Source: Chrysochromulina tobinii
Taxonomy: Eukaryota
Length of the DNA stretch: 37,387 nt
Direction of reading: 5' to 3'
NCBI GenBank assembly: GCA_001275005.1
Contig: JWZX01003368.1
Location: forward strand, 1-37,387
Below, piece after piece: positions 3-20,729 of the stretch. The position numbers were made by a program, and so were the translations under genes. Under the pieces are notes generated by a model. That model was not told the origin of the DNA. It worked only from the letters and a program-made list of their open reading frames with translations, and did not search any database. Positions within the stretch are counted from its first letter, which is position 1. Each line of letters begins with the position of its first letter.

Positions 3-1090
3 CTGCTGCCTCAGGGGAACTCGCCGCGCACAAGCCTCGTGTCCGAGCGCCACGGCATCGAGTTTCGGCAGGTTTGGAAGGTGGCAAGTTCATCGCTCGC
101 CTCATTCTTCTACTGCAACATGTGGGGATCCCTGCGACTCGACAAGCTGCCGCCTAACCAGCCGTTGCCAAAGCGCGCGATGGGCACAGGTGCATCGGCC
201 CCTCGGCTCATTGCTTTCCTGTCCCGTGAGCCAATCAGCCGCTTCGTGGCCTCGTGCTTCGAGGTCCTTGTGCGGCTCCTCAATCATGTCTCGCCAAGCG
301 GGGAGCGAATGCCCGCCGAAATGTACACGGAGCCCAAGGGCCCGTTCTCGCCGAGCGTGCTGCGGCACGGCACGAGCTGGTATGGGCCGCTGCTGCGCAC
401 GCTCAATGCCTCGAGCGCATCGGAGCGAAGGCTGGAGCTCACCGCCCTCGCCAACGGCTTCATCGAAGACATCGAGTGCGCCATCGTCTACACTGCTGCA
501 GAGCATCTCGCCACCCAAATGTCGTTCATTACGAGCGGGTACGAGGAGCGCTCGACGCGCCCCGATGAGATTGCATGTTAATTGCATGTTGATAACATGT
601 AGATAACATGCTGATGGCCTCCCTCATCAGGTACGAGGAGCGCTCGACGCTCGACTTCCAAATCCGGCTGGCCAACGCGACCGTCGACCTTGAGCGGCTC
701 GGGCGGCGCATTACGTACCAAACCCTGCATGGCGTCCCGCCGCATGCCAATACCTCCGTCTGGAAGTGCGCTCTCGGCCGGGAGAATGACGCCTCGAACA
801 AGGCAAAGCTTGCGTTCAGCAAGGCTGACTTCGTTAGCGTGCTCGAGCACAACCCCGCGTTCGTGCAGCGCCTGTGCACGGTTTACATTCAGGACTATCT
901 TTGCTTGGGCTTCGCGCTGCCGCCCGAGTGCGAGGGCGGACGAGAATTGCACCAATGGCCCCATCCTCGGCGGTCGGGCCGACGCGGCGCTCCAGTATCT
1001 GCTGTCGCTGCCCCCGCTGCCATGCAGGCCGCCGTCGCAGGGGACGTCCCTTACATGCAGGGGACGACGGGTTGGCGGACAAGTCAATGA
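3..1090 (+). CDS. Sulfotransferase family 2 (HNK-1/CHST-like) protein, 5'-partial; exons <3..538, 631..1090
   Basis: Frame is open from the window edge. PAPS-binding-like motifs FRQVWKVASSSL and FLSREPISRFVAS; C-terminal LCTVYIQDYLCLGF. Removing GT-AG intron 539..630 joins ORFs 39..581 and 608..1090 in frame (ITSG|YEERSTLDF). Confidence 0.8.
539..630 (+). other. Spliceosomal intron, family A, with exon duplication (phase 2)
   Basis: GT..CAG; 538-558 identical to 630-650 (ggtacgaggagcgctcgacgc); ends ctgatggcctccctcatcag; removal restores the frame. Confidence 0.9.
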
Positions 1091-2999: not shown

Positions 3000-5900
3000 A
3001 TGGTCGCGGGCACGCCGTCCGGGCCGACGGCGTCGGCGCTGGCCTCGTCGATGCGCGCGTTGTACCCGTCGAGTGCCGACGCGACGGCCGTATCGTTGCC
3101 GACGGCGCTCATCTCGGCCGAGCGCCTGCCGCCGCCGAACCCCATGCTGCAAAAGGAGTACGCCAAGATCGGCGGCGCGGGCGCCGTACGCGCGGAGCCG
3201 GCGGCGTTACACTTTGCGGGCATCGAGATCGGCGCGGGCGGCTCGCTTGTGCAGAAGCTGCGGCTCATCAACAGCTCCGGCCACCCCATTCGCATGCACG
3301 TCCTTCCGCCGAGCACGCCCTTCTTCACGATCAGCTTCGAGAAGAAGGGCCGGCTGATGCCGGGCCTGGCCGAGGAGATCATGGTGCGCTTCGCGCCCAA
3401 CGAGGTGCGCTACTACCACGACACCATCAAGGTGCACCTCGGCGACGGCGACGAGAACTGCCTGCTGGTGCCGATCCACGCGTACCCGGCAGTCGGCGAG
3501 CTTGCCTTCCCGGCGCGCGTCGACTTCGGGATCGTGGCGCAGGGGCAGTCGCGCGAGCGCGTGCTGCCGCTACACTCGCCCGATGGCGCCGAGTTCGAGT
3601 GGCGCATCGAGGTGCGCCAACCGCACGCTGACTTTGTGATACAGCCGAGATCGGGCATCGTGCCCGCACGCGGCGAGGCGGCCATTGTCGTCACGTTCAC
3701 GCCGTCGCGTTTGGCCACGGCGCACTGCGTCTTCGAGCTGCTGATCGCGCAGCTCGGCTATGCGCCCAAAACGATCTCTCTCGTCGGCACGTCCGCGCCG
3801 CTCCAGGTCAAGGACGCGACGCTCGCCCGCTTGCGGCACAGCGAAGATGAGCGCCTGGCTTCCGAGGAGGCCGAGTTCCGGGGGCGCATGTTCCCAAACG
3901 GGGCGCGGCGGGCGGCGGGGGACGATCCGAGCTTGGACGATCCCGCTAGCGGCGCGGCGGGCGACCCGGCTCTCGCGCCCTCGGTGCTCACTGCGCCGCC
4001 CCCCACCGGCCTGATCGAAAAGATCGCCCACGAGGCGCCCTACGGCGGCGGCTCGGCGGGCGGTGACTATGTGACGCGCGCGCGCGCGGCGCAGCTGCGC
4101 GAGGCGATCGGCGACGCGTCCGTCGAGGTCAAGTACCGGGAGGAGCGCCCGTCATACCCCGAGGAAATGAAGGAGGGCTTGCGCGTGCCGCCCTTCCTCT
4201 CGAACCAGTATGCAGTCAACTCGATGCTGCTGCAGCAGCCGTATAAGATGCGGGTCTCGGACTTGCGAGTCGCCATCGAGGAGCAGCAGGCGGACGCGGC
4301 GCGCCAGCAGGAGGAGATGGAGCTCGCGGCGATGGCGAGCCTGCCAGTGCAGTCGCAGCTGCTACAGTCGCTCGGCAAGCGTGTCGATGACGTCATCGCG
4401 TACCTGTTCGCGCGCGATTCGAATGGCGTCGGAACCGTCACCCGCAAACAGTTCCTGGGCGTACGCCATTTGCTCAAGGTGGCGTGCCTGATGGCATCCC
4501 TCATCTGATGACGTGCTTGATGGCCTCCCTCATCTGATGACGTGCCTGATGGCCTCCCTCATCTGATGACGTGCCTGATTGCCTCCCTCATCAGGTGCCC
4601 ACGGCTACGGCGGCGGACATGGGCGAGTTCTTCGACGGGATGGACCACCTCAACGCGGGGGAGCTCGACTATATGCAGCTGCAACGTGTGGCCAAGCGGC
4701 GTGCGGCGACTTTGGGCGGCGGCACGGGGCGGATGGCGTCAACGTCCGTCGAGCCGGGAGAGCTCGACATCGCGCTGCAGGGCCCCGAGCGTACGCGCCA
4801 GCTCAAGGACATGCTCTTCATGAAGGAGGTGGATGCCATCGAGACGTACGAGAAGATGAAGGAGGTCAAGTCCTTCGTGGCCACCGGCCCGCCGCTGACG
4901 CAGCCGTTCATCATCGAGGCCACTCACCGCGCTCGCGACGTTTTCTACGCCGAGAAGAGGCGTGAGGAGCGCGCGGTGGCGCGCGCGCGCCAAGCGACCG
5001 AGCTGTCCGATCCGGCCAAGGTACGCGTCGAAATCTCCGAGCCCGTGGCGAAGCTTGCTGCCGACACGACGCCCAAGTTTGACTCGTATGAGGCTGAGGT
5101 GTGGGGAAAGCGCGAGGGGGTGATGTTCGACCTGCAGCTGGCGGTGCGCGTGGCCACACTACGCGCGCGCCTCAGCCGGCGCGTGGCTGCTGTGCATGCG
5201 GCGCTGGCCAAGGCCGGCATAGGGCTGCACGACAAGCACGCGGTCCATCAGCTTGTCCTCTCGCGCTCGAAGGCAGGTGGCGGCGGCGGCGGCAAGTCGG
5301 CCGGCCTCGGGAGCTCCTCAACCCTGTCCGACGGCACGGTCGGTGGTGGGGGCCTCTCCGCTCTGGCCAAGGCGGCCAAGGCTGTGGGGCTGAGCATGGA
5401 GGGCCTCGCGCCCTTCATATTTCCGGAGGCGCCCTCCAAGGGGGCAGGCGTGCCGCAGGGGGATCCTCTCCCCATCCTGCCGATTGAGCCGTTTGATGAA
5501 ACCAAGCTCTTCGCCCTTCGCGTGCCTCGCCGGTACGTGCAGATGGACTATCGCGAGGCGCTGCTGAGCGCGCCGGGCGCTTTCCCGCCAATGGTGGATG
5601 ATCGGCCGCTGCGCATCGGCGCGCCGTTTGAATCGGGCCGGTTGCTCCCGACTGGGACAGCTGTACCGGTGCCGGATACGTGGGGTCTGCCGTCGCTGCT
5701 GCTCATGCCGCCGCCGCGCCCGCCGCCGCCGCCCGAGCCCGCCGACCCAACTATGGATGACCTGTCGGCGACCAAGGCGCTGGGTGGCGACGAGGCCAAG
5801 GAGGCGGCCGGCGACGAGGAGGAAGATGCCGAGCTGTCTTGGGATGAGAAGCATCGGATGCATCTGGCCCAGCTCAAGCCGCCGATACTTGTGCAGGTGC

Positions 5901-6633
5901 ATCCGCGGGTCATGTGCCGCCCTCCTCGCGCTAATGGCCTCCCTCATTGCATGCTGATTGCCTCCCTCATTGCATGCAGGTGCATCCGCGGGTCATGTGC
6001 CGCCCTCCTCGCGCTGTGGAGACGGATGCGCGTCAGATGTTCCGCCCGATGCCGCTCACCTGCAACGAGTTTTGGAAGGCGGAGCCGATCGGCTTCGGAT
6101 CGGGCCTTGTGCTGCTCGAGGCCGCCTCCCTCTCAAGCGTGTGGCGGCGTACGGCGGACCCCTGGGCGGATGCAGTCGCCGAGCTACCCGAGCGAATGGA
6201 GGACGTCAACCCGCCCGACGCCGCAAAGGAGCTGTCGGAGGACGAGAGCGATACCGAGATCGACCCGTCGTTGCTCTTCCCGCCCTCGCTGGATAAAGTC
6301 GGCCAGATTTTCGACTTGCCGACGCTGCCGGAGGCCGGTACCCTTTTGCCCAACGAAGCCGCCGGCTCGGCCGCGGCCGCCGTGGACGCGAAGCAGGCGT
6401 CGCCGGCGGCGGCGGCGTCTGAGTCGGTCGACGATGGCGACGTGTCGATCGCGCCCGAGCGCGACCTCATCGTCGATGCTCAGTCGGAGCGAGCGCGCGC
6501 CGAGGCGGACCTCGAGCTGCAGGCCCGCCAGGCGCGACGCATGCAGAGGCTCCGGCTGCGCGAGCAGCTCGCCGCGCTCAACGAGCACATCGAGCAGCCT
6601 CGCCACCAACTGAGCCTCACGCAAGGAGCCTAA
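3000..6633 (+). CDS. CFAP221: Cilia- and flagella-associated protein 221 (PCDP1); exons 3000..4478, 4595..5896, 5980..6633
   Basis: Tandem ASH/PapD-like domains with CFAP221 signatures (LHFAG, HVLPPSTPFF, RYYHDTIKVH, LLVPIHAYP, QPRSGIVPA, LSNQYAVNSMLLQQPYKMRVSDLR). Two phase-0 introns join ORFs 2895, 4571 and 5947. EF-hand-like pair flanks intron 1. Start codon uncertain (2895/3000/3051). Confidence 0.88.
4479..4594 (+). other. Spliceosomal intron, family A, built of four tandem 29-nt units (phase 0)
   Basis: AAG|GTGGC followed by three (gtgcytgatggcmtccctcatctgatgac) units and gtgcctgattgcctccctcatcag|GTG; frame restored. Confidence 0.92.
5897..5979 (+). other. Spliceosomal intron, family A, with 41-nt perfect duplication (phase 0)
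   Basis: 5892-5932 identical to 5975-6015; insert aatggcctccctcattgcatgctgattgcctccctcattgcatgcag; frame restored. Confidence 0.92.
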
Positions 6634-7755: not shown

Positions 7756-8814
7756 TCATGGCAACTCTTCGAGCCCCTTTGCCGCCGCCTCCTTTCGCTC
7801 ACGCAGCTTGGCGGACATCGCCCGATTGATCGCCGCGAGCGCCGCGAGCCGCTTTCGCCGCTTGGAAGGGAGCACACGCACCGGCACCGCCCCCTCCCCG
7901 AGCGGCTCCCCGTACAGCGTCGCACTCACCTCGAGGCTCAGAGGGTCGCCGAGCTCCTCCTCGGAGCCAGGGCGAAGGAAGTCGGCGGCGGGGATGGCCT
8001 GACCGCCCACGTACACGTGGCAGTTGTAACGCACTTGGTCAGGGCGCGACTTCGCCGGGGGCTGCCGATGCATTCGCACCTCGACCAAGTTCGACGGCAA
8101 CAGCTCGCCCTTGTATCGCATCTCGATGGCGAGCGCGTCCGCCGGAGGGTCCTTCTCGGGCGTGCTCCCATCGGTGGTGCGCAGCAAGATGGTGAACGAG
8201 TGCGCCGCCGCGAGCGGCAGCTCGCGCGCCGCCCCCGGGATGAACGGCGGCCACACCTCGCTGCGTGCGAGATCAATCTGCGACAGCGTGCACTCGCGAA
8301 GGTGCTCGGCGGCGAGGCGCTCGTCGCGCTCCTGCTTGGCGCGCTGGCGCTCGCCGAGCACGACCTTGATCATGGCCATGCTCTTGCGCGTCGCCTGGAC
8401 ACGACCTAGGTGCGGCATCTTCGTCTTGCGCTTCTTGTGCAGCATGCGCGTGCTGTGCAACATGTTGCGCTCCCGGAGCAGCACGATCCAGAGCTTCTGC
8501 AAGTCCTCGTTGCTCTTCAGCCGCAACTCCGCGGCGCGCCAGCGGCGCCCGGGCTCACCCCGGTCTGGGTCCTTCTCGTAAGGATCGATGAACTGCAGCA
8601 ACGCCTCGCGCGATGCAGTCTCTGGGTCCTCCCACGTTGGCTTCGGTGGCCGGTCCGGCGGGCCACGAGGAGCGTAAGATTTCAGCGCAGGAGCGATTTG
8701 CAACGCTCGGCTGAGCACCGCCGTCGGAGCAGCCAGCACAGCGCACTGCGACGATGTGGCCAACATCGAGGCTGGCCGCAGCATCGCGGCTGGGCGACGG
8801 AGAAGCGAAAGCAT
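7756..8814 (-). CDS. MRPL47: Mitochondrial ribosomal protein L47 (uL29m) with C-terminal extension
   Basis: GRRWRAAELRLKSNEDLQKLWIVLLRERNML...RKSMAMIKVVLGER is the MRP-L47 signature; N-terminal presequence MLSLLRRPAAMLRP. Confidence 0.92.
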   Translation of the reverse strand: MLSLLRRPAAMLRPASMLATSSQCAVLAAPTAVLSRALQIAPALKSYAPRGPPDRPPKPTWEDPETASREALLQFIDPYEKDPDRGEPGRRWRAAELRLKSNEDLQKLWIVLLRERNMLHSTRMLHKKRKTKMPHLGRVQATRKSMAMIKVVLGERQRAKQERDERLAAEHLRECTLSQIDLARSEVWPPFIPGAARELPLAAAHSFTILLRTTDGSTPEKDPPADALAIEMRYKGELLPSNLVEVRMHRQPPAKSRPDQVRYNCHVYVGGQAIPAADFLRPGSEEELGDPLSLEVSATLYGEPLGEGAVPVRVLPSKRRKRLAALAAINRAMSAKLRERKEAAAKGLEELP

Positions 8815-9044
8815 AGGGTCCCGTGCCCCTTGTTCTTCAATTCACAACGCAACAAAAACGCTTCTTACGCACGCGATGTGCAACGCAAACTGCGCTCACA
8901 TTCTACCAATACACCTCGGAAATAACGACAGTAAAGTTCAGCGAGTTTTTGGGATTTGGGTTGAACGACGATGGTCTTCCTGGGCGCGGACTCCGACGGA
9001 CGGGCGGCCTCTTCCCTCGTGCCGCTCTGGCGCGCGCGGGGAGG

Positions 9045-12000
9045 ATGAAGGCGGCCGTCACGGAGCGGCCGGGCGCGAAGGCGGCCGTCACGGAGCGGCC
9101 GGGCGCGATGCTCAAAGGAGCTCCGCCACCGCCGCCAGCCAAAGGCGCGCCTTCGGGCAAAGGCGTAGCCGCCGGCGCTGTTGCTCCAACAGCCCCTCCA
9201 CCGAGCAAGATCAGCACCTTCCGGCAAGGCGACCGTTGTGCGGTGAAGAGTGATACAGTCAGCGGCACAGGCGTGATTCAGTTCGTTGGCGAGGTTGCAT
9301 CGTTAGGCCCTGGGATGTGGGTGGGGGTGCTTCACGATGAGCCCGTTGGGACCTCGAACGGTGTCATCGACGGCCGGCGGCTCTTCGCGTGCCCCAACAA
9401 GCACGGCGGATTCTACGCCGTGCACGAGATTCGTGTGGACAAGCACGCCGATGAGAAGGCATCCGGCGGTGTCCCGAAGGCGTCCGGCGGTATCCCGCAG
9501 TCAACTGCGTCACCGTCTGGGGCCGTCGGTGACGAGGCTGGTCCCTCGGTCCCTTGCGCGGCGACGAGTGTCGCTGCGGGCCGTGGCCTGCATACGGCCG
9601 TGGTGGCACAGCTCTCGCAGATTACGATCACGTGCAACGATGCGTATGGGCGACGAACGAGCGGCGGGGATTCCCTGAGCGTCATCGTGCGTGGCGTCAG
9701 TCCACCGACGCAACTGCGCGTCAAGCTGCACGACCACGGCAAGGGAGTCTACGTGGCAGAGTACCGCGCGGAGCTCTCGGGCCAGCTGCTGATCGCGGTG
9801 TGCATCCGAGGCGAGGCCGTGCCAGGAAGTCCCTTCTCGGTGGAGGCGTTGTCGCTGCACGCTGAGGCATCGCAGTGCAAGCTGAGGGGAAACGCCCTCG
9901 TGGCGGCCGTGGCGCGGAAGCCGATGGCGTTTGAGATCGACTTTGTCGATGCGCTCGGCAACCCCGCGGCGGCCGAGGAACTCGACGTGCGGCTCGAGAG
10001 GGCGGAGCCCCTGCCGCCGGAGGCGGCGCCCGTCGGCATTGATGGTGACGAGGGACAGGATGCCGAGGCGCTGGCGGAGGAGAAGGCCGCGTTCGAGGAG
10101 CGCCTCGCTGCGGTCGGCACGCTTTGCGTCCTCCTGAGCAAGGCGTCGGGACTCGACTCGGCGGATCTGAACGGCAAGAGTGACCCGTACGTCGTACTGC
10201 TGTGCGCGGAGCACAAGGCGAAGAGCACGATCAAGCCCAAGACGCTGAGCCCCGTGTGGAACGAAGACTTCTCGTTTGCTGGTACGCTCCAGTCCTTTGT
10301 CACGTCGGGCCTGATGGTCAAGGTGTACGACTGCGACAATCCTCTCAAGCCGGAGAAGGATGATCTCCTCGGCGAGAAGCTCGTGTCCCTCGACAGCTTG
10401 AAGCATCAGAACACGAGCGAGTTAGTCGAGTTCCTGTCCCTCCAGGTAAAGGGGGAAACTAAGCCCGTGCCCAAGGGCAAGGTCATGCTCACGGTGACGT
10501 GGCAGCCGCCGCCCGGTGCGGAGGACGATGACATGAGCGCGAAACTGCTCGTGGGCGACGAGCGGGTGAGAGGATCGCGCCCTCTGATTGCCTCTGATGA
10601 CCGTTTGATGACACCCCTCATCGGCGTGCTGCAGGTGGTGAGGGGATCGCGCCCTCTGATTCTGCGCGAGCGTTGTGAGAAGAACTCGGCGGTGCTGTGC
10701 ATGCTACCCCCAGGCTCCCGGCTGCAGCTTCACGAGCTCAGGGAGATGAGTGACGGTACCCGTGCGCGCGTGCGCGTGGTCAGCTTCTCGGACCCGGTCT
10801 TCGGAGCTTCTTCGAAACTCAAGACCGCACGCCCCGCGGCGACCGCTCGGCTACCCGCACCCGCCCTTCCAGTTGGCGAGTAGCTCATTGGATGGGTCAC
10901 AGCATGGTACGCCAACGGGCGACGCATGCTGGTCAAGAGGCATTTGAAGCTCGACGCGAACGAGCGGCGCCGGCAGCTCGAGCTGTGGAACAAACGGACC
11001 TTTGACGAGAGGGCGCTGATGCAGCTCCAGGGGAAGGAGAAGGCCCAAGGCAAGGAGAAGGAGTTCAACGTGGGCTCGAGCTTCGTGCATGAGCTCGCTG
11101 AAGGCCCTCGTAAGATCGCGTTCGCGTGCGGCGGCGTCTTCCCGGGCACGCTCCACGCGCACGGCGCGCTGATCAAGACGCACCAAGTGTCGTACAGCGT
11201 CGGCGCTGCGGGCAAGTACCTGATGCACGTGGGCCTTCGCCAGCAGTCGGTGGTGCTTCCAGGCTCCCCGTTTGCTCTCGAGGTGAAGCCCGGTCCCGCG
11301 CACACTGAAGACCTCTGATGACCTCTGATGACCTCTGATTGAATCTGATGGCATCTGATTGCCTCCCAGGTGAAGCCCGGTCCCGCGCACGCGCCGTCGA
11401 CCAAGTTTCCCGAGGACGTGCTGCCGCTGCAAACGGTGGTCGGCACCCAAGGAAGGCTTGTCGTCCACTTATCCGACTGCATGGGCAACAAGTGCATCGA
11501 AGGCGGCGCTCATCTCGAGGTCTCGGTCAACACGAACGGCGCGCCCAAGGCCGCTCTCACGTGTAAGTGCGACGACCAGCAGGACGGCACCTTCCTAGTC
11601 ACCTGGTCCAGCGAGGTAAGCCACAAGTTGCATGCTCGAGCTCAAGATCCACAGCATGCATGTGCTCACCACGACGCTCCACCACTTCCCCACAGGTGAG
11701 CCACAAGTACATGCTCGAGCTCAAGATCCACGGGGTGCACATCGTCGGCTCCCCGGCGCCGCTGACCCTGCTTCCTGGAGACCTCGAGGTGAGCCGCTGC
11801 TCGCTGCTCGCGCCTCGCGAGGCTGTCGCGGGCGTCGCGAGCCTGGTCGAGACCAAGTGTTGCGACGCGTATGGGAATGAGGTTGCGCCGGACGTACTCG
11901 CGGGCCATGCGCCACCCTTTGGACTCCTCCTCGTGCCCGCGCTGCTCAAGGGCGTCAGCGGGCCGACCGGCAAAGACGGACGGGACGTCGAGGAGAAGCG

Positions 12001-13599
12001 CGGTCCCAACAAGGGCGACCACGTGGACGAGAAGCGCCGCGCAGCCCTGCTCAAGAAGGAGGAGCGCGCAAACCTCGTCAAGACGCTCGACACGATGAGC
12101 TTCCATGGCTCGTGGGACGGGTCCCGAATGAAGATGAGCTTCGTGCCCAAAGAGGCCGGCGACTTTGAGTTGCATGTTTGGTGCGAGCCCAACACAATTG
12201 GGGTTCGTCAGTTCCTTCCAGGCTGCCCGACGATGATACACGTGAAACCGGGGCGTGCTAGTGCGATTGGTTCGCATGTCCGATCCGATGGCGCGTCCGT
12301 CGCGCTGCTCACCGCCGGCGACAAGCTCGCCCTTAAGGTCCAGTGGCTGATGAGCTTTGATTGCCTCCCTCATCAGGTCTGATGAGCTTTGATTGCCTCC
12401 CTCATCAGGTCCAGATCTGCGACGAGTTCAACAACTTCGTCTCCCTCGCATCGGCGTCTGATATGACCTCGATGCTCGAGACGCCCATCGGGCAGCTCGC
12501 GCTGATCCAGAAGACGAGCGAGAAGCTCGAGGATCACAAGGAGGGCGACAAGAAGAAGCACAGCGTCGCCGCCGGCTCGTCCGCGGTCGGGCTGTACGAG
12601 ATCGTGAGCCCGGGCGAGCTCACTGTTAAGGGTGCGCATAGGGTATCGATCCAGCTCTTCGGCGAATCGATCACGGGCGCGCCCATCAATATTATGGTGG
12701 CGCCCGGGCCGCCAGTCTATCATAAGAGCTACCTCGAGGCCAAGGGTAGCCGACAGGAGATCGATTCTCCCATCGACGTCATCCTCCATCTTCTCGACAA
12801 GTACGGCAATCGGTGCGAGCAGGGCGGCGTACGCGTGGACGCGAAGGCGTACGGCTCCAAGGCGAGCGAGGCCAAGGTGATCGACAATCCGAACTGGCCA
12901 TTGATGGCGCCCTTCATCAGCCTCCCTCATCAGCCTCCTTGATTGTACCTTGATTGCCTCCCTCATCAGGTGGTCGACAATTCGAACGGGACCTTTTCGA
13001 TCTCGTTCAGCGCGGCGGTCCCGGGCGATTACAAGGTCCAATGCCGCCTCGAGAATGCAGACTTGCAAGTGCTGCAGCTACACGTCCTCGAAAAGGGCGA
13101 GAAGGCCGACAAGGCGGATTACGATGAGGAGATAGCGCCAGCCCTCAGAGCCCTCGCCAGCTCCAAGCCTCCAGCCCCTCCAAAGTCCGCAAGGTCAGCC
13201 TCGTCACCGACTTCGTCGGTGGTCACGGCGCCTTCAGCGCTGCCACCGGCCCCCATGATGCCCCCGCGGCCACCTGACGGCATGTCGGGTCCGGAAGCCG
13301 CCCTAGTCAAGCAAGATGCAGACGCAGCCAAGAAGAAGAGCAAAGAGAAGGGCAGCAAGACTGGCCGTGAAGAGAAGAGCGCCCGTGAAGAGAAGGGCGC
13401 TCGTGAAGAGAAGGGCGCTCCGAGCGCCACGAGCGCCGTGACGAGCGCTACCGAGGACGAGAGCACCAAGAAGACGGCCCGGGCCGGTAGCGGCAAGGGC
13501 ATCAAAACTGGGCGCGAAAGTACTGCGAGCAGTCCACCAACACCAAAGAAGGACGCCGCCAAGAAGGGTGGTAGTAAAACCGTGAGGGTGGTTGGATGA
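9045..13599 (+). CDS. Multidomain CAP-Gly + filamin(Ig)-repeat + C2 + SH3-like protein; exons 9045..10565, 10635..(in-frame TAG 10881-10883)..11282, 11370..11615, 11696..12337, 12409..12876, 12970..13599
   Basis: CAP-Gly (GVIQFVG..GMWVGVLHDEPVGTSNGVIDGRRLFACPNKHGGF); filamin repeats (DHGKGVY..GSPFSV, DQQDGTF..HIVGSP, DNSNGTFSISF..PGDYKV); C2 (ADLNGKSDPYV..KTLSPVWNEDF..KVYD). Five phase-0 GT-AG introns join successive ORFs; one unresolved in-frame TAG. Confidence 0.8.
10566..10634 (+). other. Spliceosomal intron, family A variant, 69 nt, in-frame and stop-free (phase 0)
   Basis: CGG|GTGAG...CTGCAG; 10566-10589 matches exon 10638-10661 with 1 mismatch; contains ctgattgcctctgatg and cccctcatcgg. 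Confidence 0.8.
11283..11369 (+). other. Spliceosomal intron, family A, 10-nt repeats plus 23-nt perfect duplication (phase 0)
   Basis: 11281-11303 identical to 11368-11390; insert (ctgatgacct)n...ctgattgcctcccag; in-frame TGA stops removed by splicing. Confidence 0.92.
11616..11695 (+). other. Spliceosomal intron, family B, ~36-nt diverged duplication (phase 0)
   Basis: gtaagccacaagttgcatgctcgagctcaagatccac vs exon gtgagccacaagtacatgctcgagctcaagatccac; ends gcatgcatgtgctcaccacgacgctccaccacttccccacag. Confidence 0.9.
12338..12408 (+). other. Spliceosomal intron, family A, two identical 30-nt units with internal AG|GT (phase 0)
   Basis: ctgatgagctttgattgcctccctcatcag at 12347-12376 and 12379-12408; aggtccag at both junctions; frame restored. 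Confidence 0.9.
12877..12969 (+). other. Spliceosomal intron, family A, ~18-nt diverged duplication (phase 0)
   Basis: gtgatcgacaatccgaac vs exon gtggtcgacaattcgaac; ends ttgattgcctccctcatcag; in-frame stop removed by splicing. Confidence 0.9.
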
Positions 13600-13856: not shown

Positions 13857-16587
13857 TTAGAGGGTGACGAGGGGTGCCTCGCCTCCTGCCGCGTCGCTGG
13901 ATCGGTGCTTGCGGCGGCGGCGCTTCTCCTTCGGCGCCCCGGCATCCTCAGGCTGCGCGGGCGCTCCGAACGCCTCCCCGTCCGCGTCTCCGAGCAGGTT
14001 GACAAGGAACGGCCCCTTTGCATGGCTGAGCAGGGCTTTGGACGGCGCAGCCAGCGGCGTGGCTGCGGTCGCTCCTGCGCCGCCGGCCATTTCAGGCACG
14101 CGTCGCTCGTCGTCATCGTCATCGTCGCCGGCCCCTTCGGGCATGGCTTCGTCAAGATCAACGGCCGTAACGGCCTCCTCGTCTCCGAATGCATGCGTAC
14201 CGCCTGCCATATGAGCCAAGTCGCCCGCGCCCGCAGCGGCGCCGCCCCTGCTGCTAGCGCCGCTGCCAGTGGTGGTGGCACCTTCGGAGTACATTAGAGA
14301 CGGCTCTGCCGCGCCGGGCAGCGCGGTGCTCGGCGGGCCGGCAGGCTCGTCCGTCGCCAGGTAGTACGGGCCGGCGCGCCCGGGGCGTCGTGCGCCGTCG
14401 GAGGAGGCGGAGGTGGCACTGCCCGGATAGGCGGTCGGCGTGGAGGGCGTGGAGGGCGCGGCGGGCGCGGTTGGCGGCGGCGGCGGCGTGTACAGGGGCG
14501 TGTGTAGGTCAAGGTCCGCTGGCGGCTTCACCTTACGCTGAGCTTTTGGGGCCACCGCCCGGAGCTCCACCGTGAGACCCTGCCGCAAGGCCGCGAGCAG
14601 CCGCAGCGCACTCGGCTCGGGCCAGCTCGGATCGGGCCCACCACCCGCACTCGGATCGGTCCAGCTCGGCTCGCGCCCACCCAACGCGACGGCGCCCAAC
14701 GCGGCGGGCGCGTGCATCAGCTTGGCCGAGCTCCCGAGCTCGGCGCCGTGTCGGGCGTGCGCACCGGCGCCGAGCACGAGCACGAGCACCTCAGCGGCCG
14801 AGGTGGCGCGTTCGCTCACCTCGAGGTGCGGGGAGGCATAGAAGCGGCACAGCGCGCCGTACGTGGAGCGCACGAGCGCTCGCAGCGCCGCGGCCTCGTC
14901 CCCTTGGCACGTCGCGCCGGGTCGATCGAGCGTGGCGAGGGCGCTCTCTACCTTGGGCAGGTGGACCAGAACGCGGGGGGCCGCCTGCACGCATGCCGCC
15001 TGGACAGACGGGGAGAGTGAAGCCACCGCTGGGCACAGGAGCACCTCGAGTGACCGAAGCTGTGAAGACGGTGGCAGCTGTGAAGAGTGCTCGCCCAAGA
15101 CCCAGGCGGCCGCGTACAGCGTGGCATCCGGCTGGAGCAGGCCGGGCAGGGAGGCGCCCGCCATTTGGTCGAGCGCCGTCTCGAGCACCTCGAGTGCCTT
15201 CTCCGCCGCAAAGCCGCGTACGGACTGTACGCGGAGCGTCACCTCGACGAGGAGCTGCGCCACGTCAGCATCGTGCTTCGAGGGGAGCGCCGCGAGCGCA
15301 AAGAGCGTCGTGACGAGCCAGCGGAAGGACGGCACGTGGGAGAAGCTCTCGGCCTTCACAGCCGCCAGGAGAACCTCAATCACCTCGTCGCGATACGAGC
15401 TCTCGCTAGTGTACAGCTGTCCCATCAGCTTCGCGACCAGCCCCGGCAGGCTCGCGCGGCTGACCATCCCCGAGATCAGGCTGAGAGCGCGTTGACGAAC
15501 CGTCGGCTGGTCGTCGAGGCATTTGAGAATCGCGTCGCGGCAAGGCTCGACCAACGCCTTGTCCGCCCTCTGAAGCTCCGCGAGCGCGAGCAGCCCGAGG
15601 GCCTGCAGGTTCGGGTCGCTCGTCTCGATGAAGCCCTGAAGGTGCGTCGCAGTCAGCTGCGCGAGCTGAGGGCTCGAGTCGGCCATCGTCGAGGCGACCG
15701 TGTACAGGCATTCAAACTGGAGCGATTTGGCGGGAGTCGTCTCGATCAAATGGGTGAGGGGCTGGACGAGCTTCTTGGCGAGCCGCGGCTCATGGGGCAC
15801 GAGCTGCCGAAGGAACTTGACCACCTTAATGAGCGTCCAGTTGGAGGACGAGGTGGTGAGCACCTGTGGGGAGACGCGAGGGCGCCGTAGTCAGCACTTG
15901 CATGCAGAGTGGCGTCCGGTGAAAGGACGAGGCAGTGAGCACCTGGTAGAGCGCGGGGGCTAGCCCGAGGTACCCTTTGGGATTCTCGGTCGCGAGCTCG
16001 GTGAGCACGTTGACGGTGCACGAGACGACGTTCGGATCAGGGTCGTCGAGCTTCTCGCGCAGCCGCGGGAACGCGGTCGGCAGCGCCTCGGGCAGACGCC
16101 GCAGCAGCCGGTACAGCGCGATGACCGCCTTTTTGCGCACGAGAGGGCGCGACGAGGAGAGCAGATTGGTCACGTCCTGAAGCAGGTCGCGCGAGAGGTC
16201 GGGCGTCGCCATGACTGAGAGGCTGTTGAGCGCGAGCGACGCGTCGTGGTGCACCGACGACGCGAACGACTTGCGCAGCAGGTTGGTCGTGAGCAGCATG
16301 ACGTCCGTCGCATCCGTGAAGGTCTGCGCGGCGGCGAGGTAGCCGATGCGCTTCCCGCGAAAGCGCGGCGAGGCCATCAGGTCGACGAAGTGAAAGGCGG
16401 CCCACGAGACGTCCTGGCCGAGCATGTGCATGTACATGAGCTTGAGCACTGCATGCTGCTTGACCGTCGTGTCCGTGCTCGAGAGCTCGCCCTTGCACTC
16501 GGTGATGCAGGTGGCAAGGTACGCGGCCTCGTTTTGCGGGTTGGCGCGGATGCCTTTGATCATATCGTTGAGTGTCTTCTCGAACAT
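13857..16587 (-). CDS. AP3D1: AP-3 complex subunit delta (adaptin); exons 16587..15943, 15863..13857
   Basis: MFEKTLNDMIKGIRA...KRIGYLAAAQTF...VRKKAV...LDDPDP..V..ELATENPKGYLGLAP..YQ|VLTTSSSNWTLIKVVK..EPRLAKKL..VAPKAQRKV matches delta-adaptin. Confidence 0.95.
15864..15942 (-). other. Spliceosomal intron, family B, 19-nt duplication with 2 mismatches (phase 0)
   Basis: Minus strand: CAG|gtgctcactgcctcgtcct...gcatgcaagtgctgactacggcgccctcgcgtctccccacag|gtgctcaccacctcgtcct; restores the conserved AP3D frame. Confidence 0.93.
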
Positions 16588-16894: not shown

Positions 16895-18291
16895 ATGCTG
16901 TCTGTCGCTGTGGCCTGTTGCCCGGTCCTCGGTTCCAGTGCAACAGTCGCTGTGGCAATGGCCTGTACTGCACCGCGATCGTGCACCTCGTCGATGCTGT
17001 CAAAGCTGGAAGGAACCTCGTGGCACCCTTCTGTGGACGGTGCTGCCGCATTCGTTACCTTCACGGACGAAATGTACGAGGCGATGCTGCACGACGACGC
17101 TCGCACATCGGCCTTCGGACTAGCGATAAGCCGGAGGGTGCGTGCACACGCGGGCGACTGCGTCGTCCTCGACCTGGGAACGGGCCCATTTGCAGTGCTG
17201 GCCCTCTTCGCTGCGCGTGCAGGCGCCTCAAAAGTGTTTGCCGTCGAAGCCAATCCGGAAGCCGCGGCGAAAGCCCGCGCCTTGATCGCGAGCTCTGCAG
17301 CGTCTGACATTCCGCCAGGAACGATTGAGATAATCGAGGGCTTCTCGACGACGATCACGCTGCCGGAGCAGGCCGACCTGCTCATCTCCGAGATTGCGGG
17401 CTCGATTGCATCCGAAGAGGGCATGTTGGCCACGATCCGCGACGCGAGGCTGCGGCACATGAAGCGGCCGTGGGATCCCCGCTCCTATATCCCCGCCCGC
17501 GTCCAAACGCTCGCCGTACCTGCCGCCTACAGCCTTCACCACCGGCTCAATTGCGATTGGATCGCCTCTGGCCCTCCTGTGAGGTTTGCGTGCGACAACC
17601 CGTGGCTGCTCCCGCTCGCGACACCGCAGCTGTGGGAAGACTTTGCCTTCGGAGGCGAGGAGCTGCCGCCTGGATCGGGTGCGCGTTGCACGACGGTGCT
17701 CGAGTTCCGCGTGTGCGCGTCCACCCTCAAGGCCAACGCAGCTCGCTTGCTCGAGCAGCTCGATCTGCACGACGTCGACGCGGACCGAGCCGGTGTGCCC
17801 AAGCAAGGCCGCTCACAAAACCCTGCGCGCTGCGCCATGCCCTGCGCGGCCCGCCCCGAGCAGCTCGCCGATAGCTCGCCGAGCGCCTCTGATTATACTC
17901 CGATGGCCGCTGATTGCGACGGATTGCATGTTTGCTTCCCTCATCAGGTGCCCAAGGCCGCTCACTCGCGCAGCTCGCCGAGGACGTGGCGCACTCTCTG
18001 TCCGGGCTCGCCTGCTGGCCACGCCTCGTGCTCGATGAAGGCGGTGGTGGACCAGTCGACGAGCCCCCCATCCCTCCCATCGTCATCGAATCGCGCGGCA
18101 TGCGCGGAGAACCCTTTCGTAGCCATTGGCAAACGGTGCTCCCGTTGCTGTCGACGAGGCCAACGCCGGTCAAGGCGGGTGCGCTCATCTCAGTGAAGGC
18201 GACTGTTGAACTGAGCATGGACGTTGAGTTGCCGCCCTATTATGAGATCGAGGCTTCCATAGAGTACCCATGTGATGGCGCGCTGCCCTGA
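16895..18291 (+). CDS. PRMT-like SAM-dependent protein methyltransferase; exons 16895..17792, 17948..18291
   Basis: YEAMLHDDARTSAF, VVLDLGTGP, KVFAVEAN, ADLLISEIAG..EEG (double-E loop) and SHWQTV (THW-like loop) after the intron. Start codon uncertain. Confidence 0.85.
17793..17947 (+). other. Spliceosomal intron, family A, with fragmented exon duplication (phase 1)
   Basis: Contains gtgcccaag, caaggccgctcac and gcagctcgccga from the downstream exon; ends ctgattgcgacggattgcatgtttgcttccctcatcag; donor at 17793 restores the frame. Confidence 0.8.
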
Positions 18292-20380: not shown

Positions 20381-20612
20381 TCTCCCCTGATCACCTTACC
20401 TGTCTTCCGACGCCAACGATCCGACGCCCTTGCCAGGTCCAGTCTCCCCTGATTACCTTACCGGTCTTCCAACGCCGACGATCCGACGCCCTTGTCAGGT
20501 CCGATTCCCCTGAGTACCTTACATCCTCTGACGCCGACGATCCGACGCCATGCCAGGTCCAGTCAGCAGTCTCCCCTGATTACCTGTCCTCCGACGCCGA
20601 CGATCCGACATC
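20381..20612. repeat. Tandem array of four imperfect ~62-nt units
   Basis: Unit tctcccctgatyaccttacc..tcttccracgccracgatccgacgcccttgycaggtcc starts at 20381, 20443, 20505 and 20570 (partial). Confidence 0.9.
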
Positions 20613-20630
20613 ATTCATGCGCGTACGCTT

Positions 20631-20729
20631 TCCCTGATTGCATGCTGATGGGGCCCTCCCTCATCATGGCATGCCCATGGCCCTCCCTGATTGCATGCTG
20701 ATGGGGCCCTCCCTCATCATGGCATACAG
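20631..20729 (+). repeat. Orphan family-A-like element: two 42-nt copies (period 53) ending in ACAG
   Basis: tccctgattgcatgctgatggggccctccctcatcatggcat at 20631 and 20684, same vocabulary as the family A introns. Confidence 0.8.

Follow-up and report, generated by a model that had tools for sequence, protein, structure and literature searches.

Introns with flanking exon duplications and repeat-rich fillers in Chrysochromulina tobinii: a probable origin by copying from other introns

Introduction

How does an intron come to consist largely of imperfect copies of a word of 10–11 nucleotides? The question is raised by positions 559–630 of a contig from Chrysochromulina tobinii (37,387 nucleotides, the whole of which is referred to here as the window), which an initial annotation read as reiterations of a short monomer, typical of a class of inserts termed family A, and attributed to telomerase-like or stuttering reverse transcription of a short RNA template, or else to slippage after insertion. 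The units are indeed present as quoted, and similar arrays occur at 11304–11369, 5933–5979, and also 4483–4592. Strand-biased 10–11-bp tandem repeats are reportedly concentrated in haptophyte introns, as told in the 2013 Emiliania huxleyi genome paper by Read and colleagues, and we know of no mechanism proposed for these repeats, nor of any tie to flanking duplications. The window itself encodes eukaryotic domains (ciliary Ig, filamin, C2, and ion-channel), its nearest named proteins are from haptophytes (Prymnesium parvum, 69%; Emiliania huxleyi, 69%), and its GC content of 63.4% is the same as that published for Chrysochromulina tobin (PMC4580454).

The transposon-free origin of new spliceosomal introns is an open question, to which the duplicate-and-fill introns described below would offer one route. 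In the passages available from a 2012 review, five break-repair gains and 14 intron transpositions were counted as unambiguous (PMC3443670).

Anatomy of the intron at 539–630

The element is larger than first noted, because an exact 21-bp direct repeat of a piece of exon (538–558 and 630–650) flanks the filler; the predicted intron is therefore 539–630, with a length of 92 nt. Its parts are as follows.

538–558 (+): duplication copy 1, 21 bp, exact; its own GT at 539 is the predicted donor
559–630 (+): filler, consisting of four decayed 11-nt units and then the terminal cassette
573–610 (+): fold-back hairpin within the filler; units 3–4 are a near-inverted copy of units 1–2
611–630 (+): terminal cassette CTGATGGCCTCCCTCATCAG, with a branch-point-like CTGAT and an AG acceptor; itself a short inverted repeat
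630–650 (+): duplication copy 2, the start of the downstream exon

The GT is supplied by the duplication, and the branch point and AG by the filler. With the intron taken out, two frames are open over 150 nt on each side; with it left in, stops occur in all three. The starts that had been given for three inserts need correction. The true predicted starts lie earlier, at 539, 11283, and 5897, and from there onward the intron exactly repeats the opening 20, 21, and 36 nt, respectively, of the exon downstream. Nor does every monomer contain CTGAY, as had been stated: the stretch at 559–630 has one, in the last of its five units, and 998 of 1,689 units begin with CTGAY among the matches listed.

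The hairpin at 573–610 has a z score of −4.4 against shuffles and a perfect 8-bp stem, which is among the seven longest in 144 fillers. The odd units are therefore partly mutual inverted copies and not plain direct monomers, and judged from their sequence they look like fold-back copies. The last six bases of the cassette at 611–630 are the reverse complement of the first six of a unit; a unit copied in fold-back fashion could thus by itself yield an acceptor 3′ of a branch point.

A DNA run over 380–800 revealed two haplotypes, both with the filler at 559–630, the second having a 2-nt deletion within 538–558. They differ at nine exon sites over ~140 nt (~6%) and also inside the filler, which must therefore be old, as both carry it despite this divergence. 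Only three DNA-run pieces cover 560–600, at haplotype depth, and over 380–800 the second haplotype shows a different filler structure. In the same interval, three RNA runs gave only cross-matches of the cassette and no contig bridging the filler, uninformative either way on splicing of the predicted intron. Pfam returned no family for the exon frames of the host gene (4/9 queries).

Other introns in the window

Nine further inserts were delineated, among them two of a second type, family B, in which the filler is non-repetitive, with a colinear 3′ end, 3′-anchored, and 5′-truncated (11616–11695 and 15864–15942).

4479–4594 (+): family A predicted intron built of 29-nt higher-order units; duplication from the GT limited to 3 nt; ORF phases join
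5897–5979 (+): family A predicted intron; 41-bp exact duplication (5892–5932, 5975–6015)
10566–10634 (+): family A predicted intron; diverged ~25-bp duplication, its end matching the unit
11283–11369 (+): family A predicted intron; 23-bp exact duplication; 10-nt units
11616–11695 (+): family B-type predicted intron with non-repetitive filler; diverged ~38-bp duplication
12338–12408 (+): family A predicted intron; doubled cassette; 6-nt duplication from the GT
12877–12969 (+): family A predicted intron; 12–14-bp duplication with one mismatch
15864–15942 (−): family B-type intron in AP-3 delta; diverged ~30-bp duplication; spliced
17795–17947 (+): complex family A insert with nested duplications; ORF phases failed to join at the tested donor

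GT..AG ends, a branch-point-like word, and a frame restored on removal are common to 539–630 and seven other window introns, and the 20-nt terminal cassette has eight window matches with at most two mismatches, compared with none in 100 shuffles. The host of 4479–4594 is a CFAP65-like Ig-domain gene. Splicing of 15864–15942 is documented by an RNA contig that joins 15855 to 15935, with a DNA contig running through and P0001 reading across. The intron at 12338–12408 is joined in 3/3 RNA runs, but weakly in the DNA run too. Over 7843–13000, DNA-run depth is about double and many alternative letters are present, suggesting a second diverged copy or haplotype, which may lack the intron at 12338–12408. 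At 20381–20725, a decayed 62-bp tandem array is followed by two 53-bp units of family A words, outside any long ORF chosen by the codon model.

Sample of related loci

At least 128 related loci were obtained from one scan of metagenome contigs for the exact cassette, amounting to 786 kb including the window; the loci are thus ascertained on an exact cassette match. The cassette pattern had no match in viral contigs and prokaryote genomes. Counts for the strand control, for cassettes followed by GT, and for reverse transcriptase (RT) motifs refer to all 129 sequences (the first two de-duplicated by sequence), and for later counts 24 overlapping or allelic loci were dropped, leaving 105. The set of 166 clean fillers (among the matches listed) was defined by a filter that excludes duplications shorter than 12 bp.

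Repeat units and tracts

At the 105 loci, family A comprises 476 tracts and 2,048 units among the matches listed. Tracts with at least three core words numbered 488 on the real strands and 0 on complement-only control strands (among the matches listed). Units are 10 nt long in 1,167 cases (57%) and 11 nt in 291 (14%), together 71%, with a second mode at 20–23 nt, and the consensus of the 10-nt unit is CTGATKRCCT, all among the matches listed. Family words make up a median of 74% of a filler among the matches listed, which is at odds with introns of duplicated local sequence alone, and the inserts span 36–145 nt between the 5th and 95th percentiles (also among the matches listed).

The units are far from uniform. 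Among the matches listed there are 751 unit types, with 124 dominant types across 270 tracts, and pairs of units are identical 27% of the time when drawn within one tract vs 1.8% when drawn between contigs (~15 times). Heterogeneity within fillers is equal beside perfect and imperfect duplications (1.27 vs 1.17 mismatches per 10 nt), and stepwise drift along the tract is absent, with 1.24, 1.21, 1.33, 1.20, and 1.16 mismatches at lags 1–5, in both cases among the matches listed. Hence the heterogeneity was mostly there at insertion, and stepwise slippage is not the sole source of unit variation. Slippage after insertion, as the initial annotation had envisaged, does take place: unit number differs between assemblies at four orthologous introns, by 11–94 bp (among the matches listed), showing that slippage continues.

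Cassettes are followed by GT in 215 of 297 cases (among the matches listed). The 298 complexes among the matches listed were classified as 181 sense, 11 antisense, 64 ambiguous, and 42 noncoding-like, by a classifier that wrongly called 2 antisense when tried on 143 known exon sites. On inspection, nearly all of 53 odd-orientation cases look like gene introns beside other introns, and no clearly intergenic or antisense tract was seen among the matches listed.

Flanking duplications and junctions

A flanking repeat is present at 252/476 tracts vs 112/624 control sites (among the matches listed), and on a stricter test the first 12 exon nucleotides recur upstream at 95/257 cassette ends vs 19 and 20 for control windows (among the matches listed). 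The 166 clean cases among the matches listed consist of 60 ending in the cassette and 106 arrays without it; their duplications are 12–54 bp long, with a median of 23 bp and no fixed length, shorter ones being excluded by the filter. Short duplications occur, several window introns having 3–6 nt from the GT. No helical 10.5-bp periodicity was found in the duplication or the added length of the 166 clean inserts (among the matches listed). The added length of these inserts is uneven modulo 3 (3n+2, 71; 3n, 56; 3n+1, 39; p 0.003 vs a jitter null).

Copies vary in number and register, as had been noted from the window. Among the matches listed, fillers start at all 11 unit positions and end at all 11 counted positions. 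In-register microhomology of at least 3 nt is found at 23 of 70 left junctions, with 2.0 expected, and at 9 of 44 right junctions, with 1.1 expected (among the matches listed). Mean microhomology is 1.66 nt on the left (n=70) and 1.73 nt on the right (n=44), the null being 0.38 for both, and 0/2,000 permutations reach either value. With entry possible at any register and with primer-like microhomology at the 5′ junction, the copies do not behave as one colinear full-length element, in agreement with the initial annotation.

An exact GT..AG register is found in 49/60 cassette fillers and 42/106 cassette-less fillers (among the matches listed), the AG in the latter being supplied by the second copy of the duplication. 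Of 70 fillers that lack the cassette and have a strong donor, 36 have no AG in register (among the matches listed). In two loci read by eye (L012 and L032), fillers without AG lie within an already existing intron, at its 5′ end. Non-canonical acceptors were considered for the AG-less cases and dropped in view of this nesting.

Could the element be a classical introner, that is, a non-autonomous DNA transposon whose copies, once of one fixed length, have since decayed and grown through local slippage? Such an element would account for the conserved 20-nt 3′ cassette with its 6–7-bp inverted repeat, for the frequent GT after the cassette (215/297 among the matches listed), and for the active slippage. 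As to terminal inverted repeats, the sequences offer a hairpin of 6–7 bp inside the 3′ cassette and nothing further. Against it, the 5′ end of the element is not conserved and the copies are not similar from end to end, entry is at an arbitrary register with microhomology, and the cassette is absent from 106/166 clean fillers (among the matches listed). Furthermore, duplications run to 12–54 bp in place of a fixed 3–9 bp or none, with those below 12 bp filtered out and 3–6 nt occurring in the window. This origin is the most improbable of those considered.

Family B shares the anatomy around a different filler. Long duplications are found at 46/105 of its ends vs 4 in the control, with a median of 30 bp (among the matches listed), and A/B chimeras exist (L044). 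Since equally long duplications occur here without the 10-mers, the insertion process is independent of the 10-mers, and the reiteration does not lie in the insertion step.

At three sites (L123 (−) 524–648, L042 (−) 12698, and L069 (−) 5354), the duplication begins upstream of the GT, which would leave additional exon sequence in the spliced product (18 in-frame nt for L123); events can therefore lengthen proteins. At L041, L042, L062, L022, L012, and L123, whole intron units (duplication and filler) are tandemly amplified several times, probably via unequal exchange between direct repeats.

Donors and a presence/absence polymorphism

For 24/163 fillers, the best alignment is found within the contig that carries them, with 3.2 expected (among the matches listed). 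For the other 139/163, including 559–630, no local match is better than a distant one, among the matches listed and within ~1% of a genome; for 559–630, no local donor was found, the best local match being 18 and the best distant one 34, of 71. Same-strand neighbors less than 1 kb apart are 2.2–2.5 times more alike than permuted pairs (p 0.0045 and 0.0005; among the matches listed). Beyond ~1–2 kb or across strands, sharing is at background on a rarity-weighted test, with one bin positive on a cruder test. Among the matches listed, 14 of 246 near pairs lie above the 99th percentile, with 2.5 expected, and 7 of those 14 share at least 4 nt of exon start vs a background of 16%. Private non-repeat words are common to the filler and a neighboring intron at L021, L025, and L080. 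The donor lies upstream in eight cases and downstream in three, including one reciprocal pair (a weak bias, among the matches listed). The similarity between neighbors could partly stem from gene conversion after insertion.

The most instructive case is L021, where 79 bp, including a perfect 30-bp duplication, form a block that L040 lacks; L040 has a single copy of the target, retains the neighboring intron unspliced, and is ~98.5% identical to L021 elsewhere. The L021 filler matches this neighboring intron, 448 bp upstream, via a word that occurs in no other locus (among the matches listed), and differs from it by one 10-nt unit fewer and two substitutions, with 4 nt shared past the acceptor; the missing unit reflects a slip, and the slip produced a new unit variant. 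The simpler reading of the two sequences would be that the block was gained in L021 and not precisely lost between direct repeats in L040; such a loss could nevertheless explain the difference, its direction not being proven.

These donor–recipient pairs bear directly on the proposal that break ends are extended with repeats by a telomerase-like or stuttering RT that reads a single short template RNA. The check for a circularly permuted template that went with this proposal gave a divided answer, with arbitrary register and in-register annealing on one side and, on the other, no single invariant unit (124 different dominant types across the 270 tracts). Such an enzyme would leave circular permutation and, at the 5′ junction, in-register microhomology, and it would likewise fit the sharp 10-nt mode, the lack of drift along tracts, the sense-only orientation, and the pure arrays without cassette (106/166 among the matches listed). 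It is contradicted by unit diversity, with 751 types overall and 124 dominant ones across 270 tracts (among the matches listed), by an identity within tracts 15 times that between contigs, by the private non-repeat words shared with neighbors, by the 3′-junction microhomology (9/44 vs 1.1), and by the same anatomy around the non-repeat filler of family B. The only telomere-like words among the matches listed are two TTAGGG triplets inside contig L065 (5640–5690), Rfam had no match in 64 kb, and the suggested search for a template RNA found none in ~0.79 Mb. A single telomerase-like template is contradicted, because it is unable to yield locus-private words or family B; the model as a whole, on the evidence of the paired sequences, appears largely refuted and is very improbable. 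Thus the reading of the inserts as short monomers is largely right, and the inference of a fixed template is not supported.

Replication template switching (FoSTeS/MMBIR-like) would dispense with a staggered break, the nascent strand copying a nearby intron and returning 12–54 nt upstream. Microhomology at both ends, local donors on the same strand, the many other tandem duplications, and the fold-back hairpin are all compatible with it; alone, however, it leaves unexplained both the lack of clearly intergenic or antisense tracts and the many fillers without a local donor, and we consider it improbable.

Mechanism

The explanation that we consider probable is that each element arose when a staggered break was repaired: 12–54 bp of the gene became duplicated, and the filler between the two copies was taken over from the 3′ region of some other intron. 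Removal of the insert by splicing is predicted. Directly observed are the anatomy, the microhomology at both junctions, the arbitrary register of entry and exit, nearby donors for a minority of fillers, a single presence/absence polymorphism, and subsequent changes in the number of units. Offset nicks would leave 3′ overhangs, which become the duplication; one end would anneal to a donor array or a donor splice junction, copy part of it, and anneal back, primed by microhomologies of 1–7 nt. Slippage during or after copying would reiterate and remix the units, the reiteration presumably being inherited and amplified and not templated anew. Selection would keep those events in which copy 1 contributes a GT, the filler a CTGAT branch point, and either the cassette or copy 2 an AG, so that splicing is clean, and also those falling inside an existing intron, and a filler rich in branch-point words would make spliceable or intron-internal events frequent. 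A limit on this explanation is that 95/257 cassette ends alone keep a detectable duplication (among the matches listed).

Since the shared sequence runs past the acceptor of the donor, the template would be DNA or unspliced pre-mRNA and not an excised lariat. Between these, we lean slightly to nascent RNA, because of the sense-only orientation and the weak upstream donor bias (eight up, three down); what leans toward a DNA template is an inverted neighbor copy in L093, perhaps an assembly error. In this locus, 88–160 (−) and 400–536 (+) contain an inverted copy of the end of a neighboring intron, with 7 nt shared past the acceptor, which may be either a DNA-level switch or a misassembly.

A retroelement could also perform both the cutting and the copying, with an identical product: in non-LTR or Penelope-like target-primed reverse transcription (TPRT), acting in trans on unspliced host pre-mRNA, its endonuclease and RT would do so. 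Variable long duplications and 3′-anchored, 5′-truncated fillers with microhomology are found, as expected of this process, the sense orientation agrees with it, and variable duplication length is known for Penelope-like TPRT (PMC8557442). The listed fillers, however, have no poly(A) or fixed tail, an RT-like motif is absent from the 129 sequences scanned (~1% of a genome, crude pattern), and the one inverted neighbor copy, maybe an assembly error, also speaks against it. TPRT is unlikely, if somewhat less so than template switching.

Staggered-break repair by microhomology-primed copying could in turn be coupled to transcription. As a tentative extension, which we regard as rather doubtful, a host polymerase or a retroelement RT, with unspliced pre-mRNA as its template, would place the branch-point array and acceptor of an existing intron between two copies of the target at staggered breaks in active genes, and thereby form a self-propagating intron factory without a transposon. 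If so, introns would seed new introns by the thousand, often from an upstream intron of the same transcript, and the junction repeats would still record donor and recipient. No enzyme, template RNA, or RT was found in the ~0.79 Mb searched (~1% of a genome), a crude pattern found no RT-like motif in 129 sequences (~1% of a genome), and Rfam gave 0 matches in three sources (64 kb). In a fraction of one genome there are already hundreds of events whose junctions can be read and whose donors can be identified, together with an empty site that segregates, and break-repair gain, intron-to-intron copying, and RNA-templated repair are therefore testable by population genomics and in culture.

Comparison with known systems

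The feature is real, and is a variation on known intron-gain routes at genome scale. No description of duplicate-and-fill introns was found in the literature searched, mostly without subscription papers, and supplements with introner tables could bear on this novelty; a paper on Phaeocystales contains nothing on such introns, and long duplications in Chlamys were not confirmed in PMC8557442.

In break-repair intron gain, new introns are flanked by direct repeats, which are read as the fill-in of a staggered break. The present introns are alike in that flanking repeats stand above background and one relative (L040) has an empty site with a single repeat copy. What sets them apart from break-repair gain is the length of the duplications (median 23 bp), a filler that probably stems from other introns, with a branch point and, often, the acceptor already in it, and the scale, complexes occurring about once every 3.5 kb (61 over 214 kb, counted away from the anchoring match, among the matches listed). 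In tandem genomic duplication of AGGT, as outlined in the available part of the same 2012 review (PMC3443670), the duplicated exon gives the donor; it does so here too, and also gives the acceptor in 42/106 cassette-less cases. In contrast to that route, foreign filler lies here between the copies, and the AG of the cassette type comes from the filler.

Introners, according to the accessible text of three sources (PMC9860276; 10.1101/2024.06.04.597373; Micromonas IEs, PMC4540971), resemble the present introns in forming a repeated coding-strand family, in taking the donor from the target duplication, and in presence/absence polymorphism; unlike family A, they are similar from end to end, with duplications of 3–9 bp or none. 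The Chrysochromulina example in the portion available of the introner survey includes the 5′ site, and its duplication is 4 bp long (PMC9860276). According to the same portion, the survey required similarity to both intron ends and removed low-complexity families, and family A would therefore likely have been removed there (PMC9860276). This suggests that introner surveys that filter low-complexity introns would miss the duplicate-and-fill class.

Finally, templated insertions by SD-MMEJ and polymerase theta, as far as described in the excerpts available (PMC2943611), are alike in the microhomology-primed copying of nearby sequence into a break and in their loop-out and snap-back products. Here, unlike in SD-MMEJ, the inserts are 36–145 nt long and have donors at distances of 0.2–2.9 kb or beyond, and what results is an intron.
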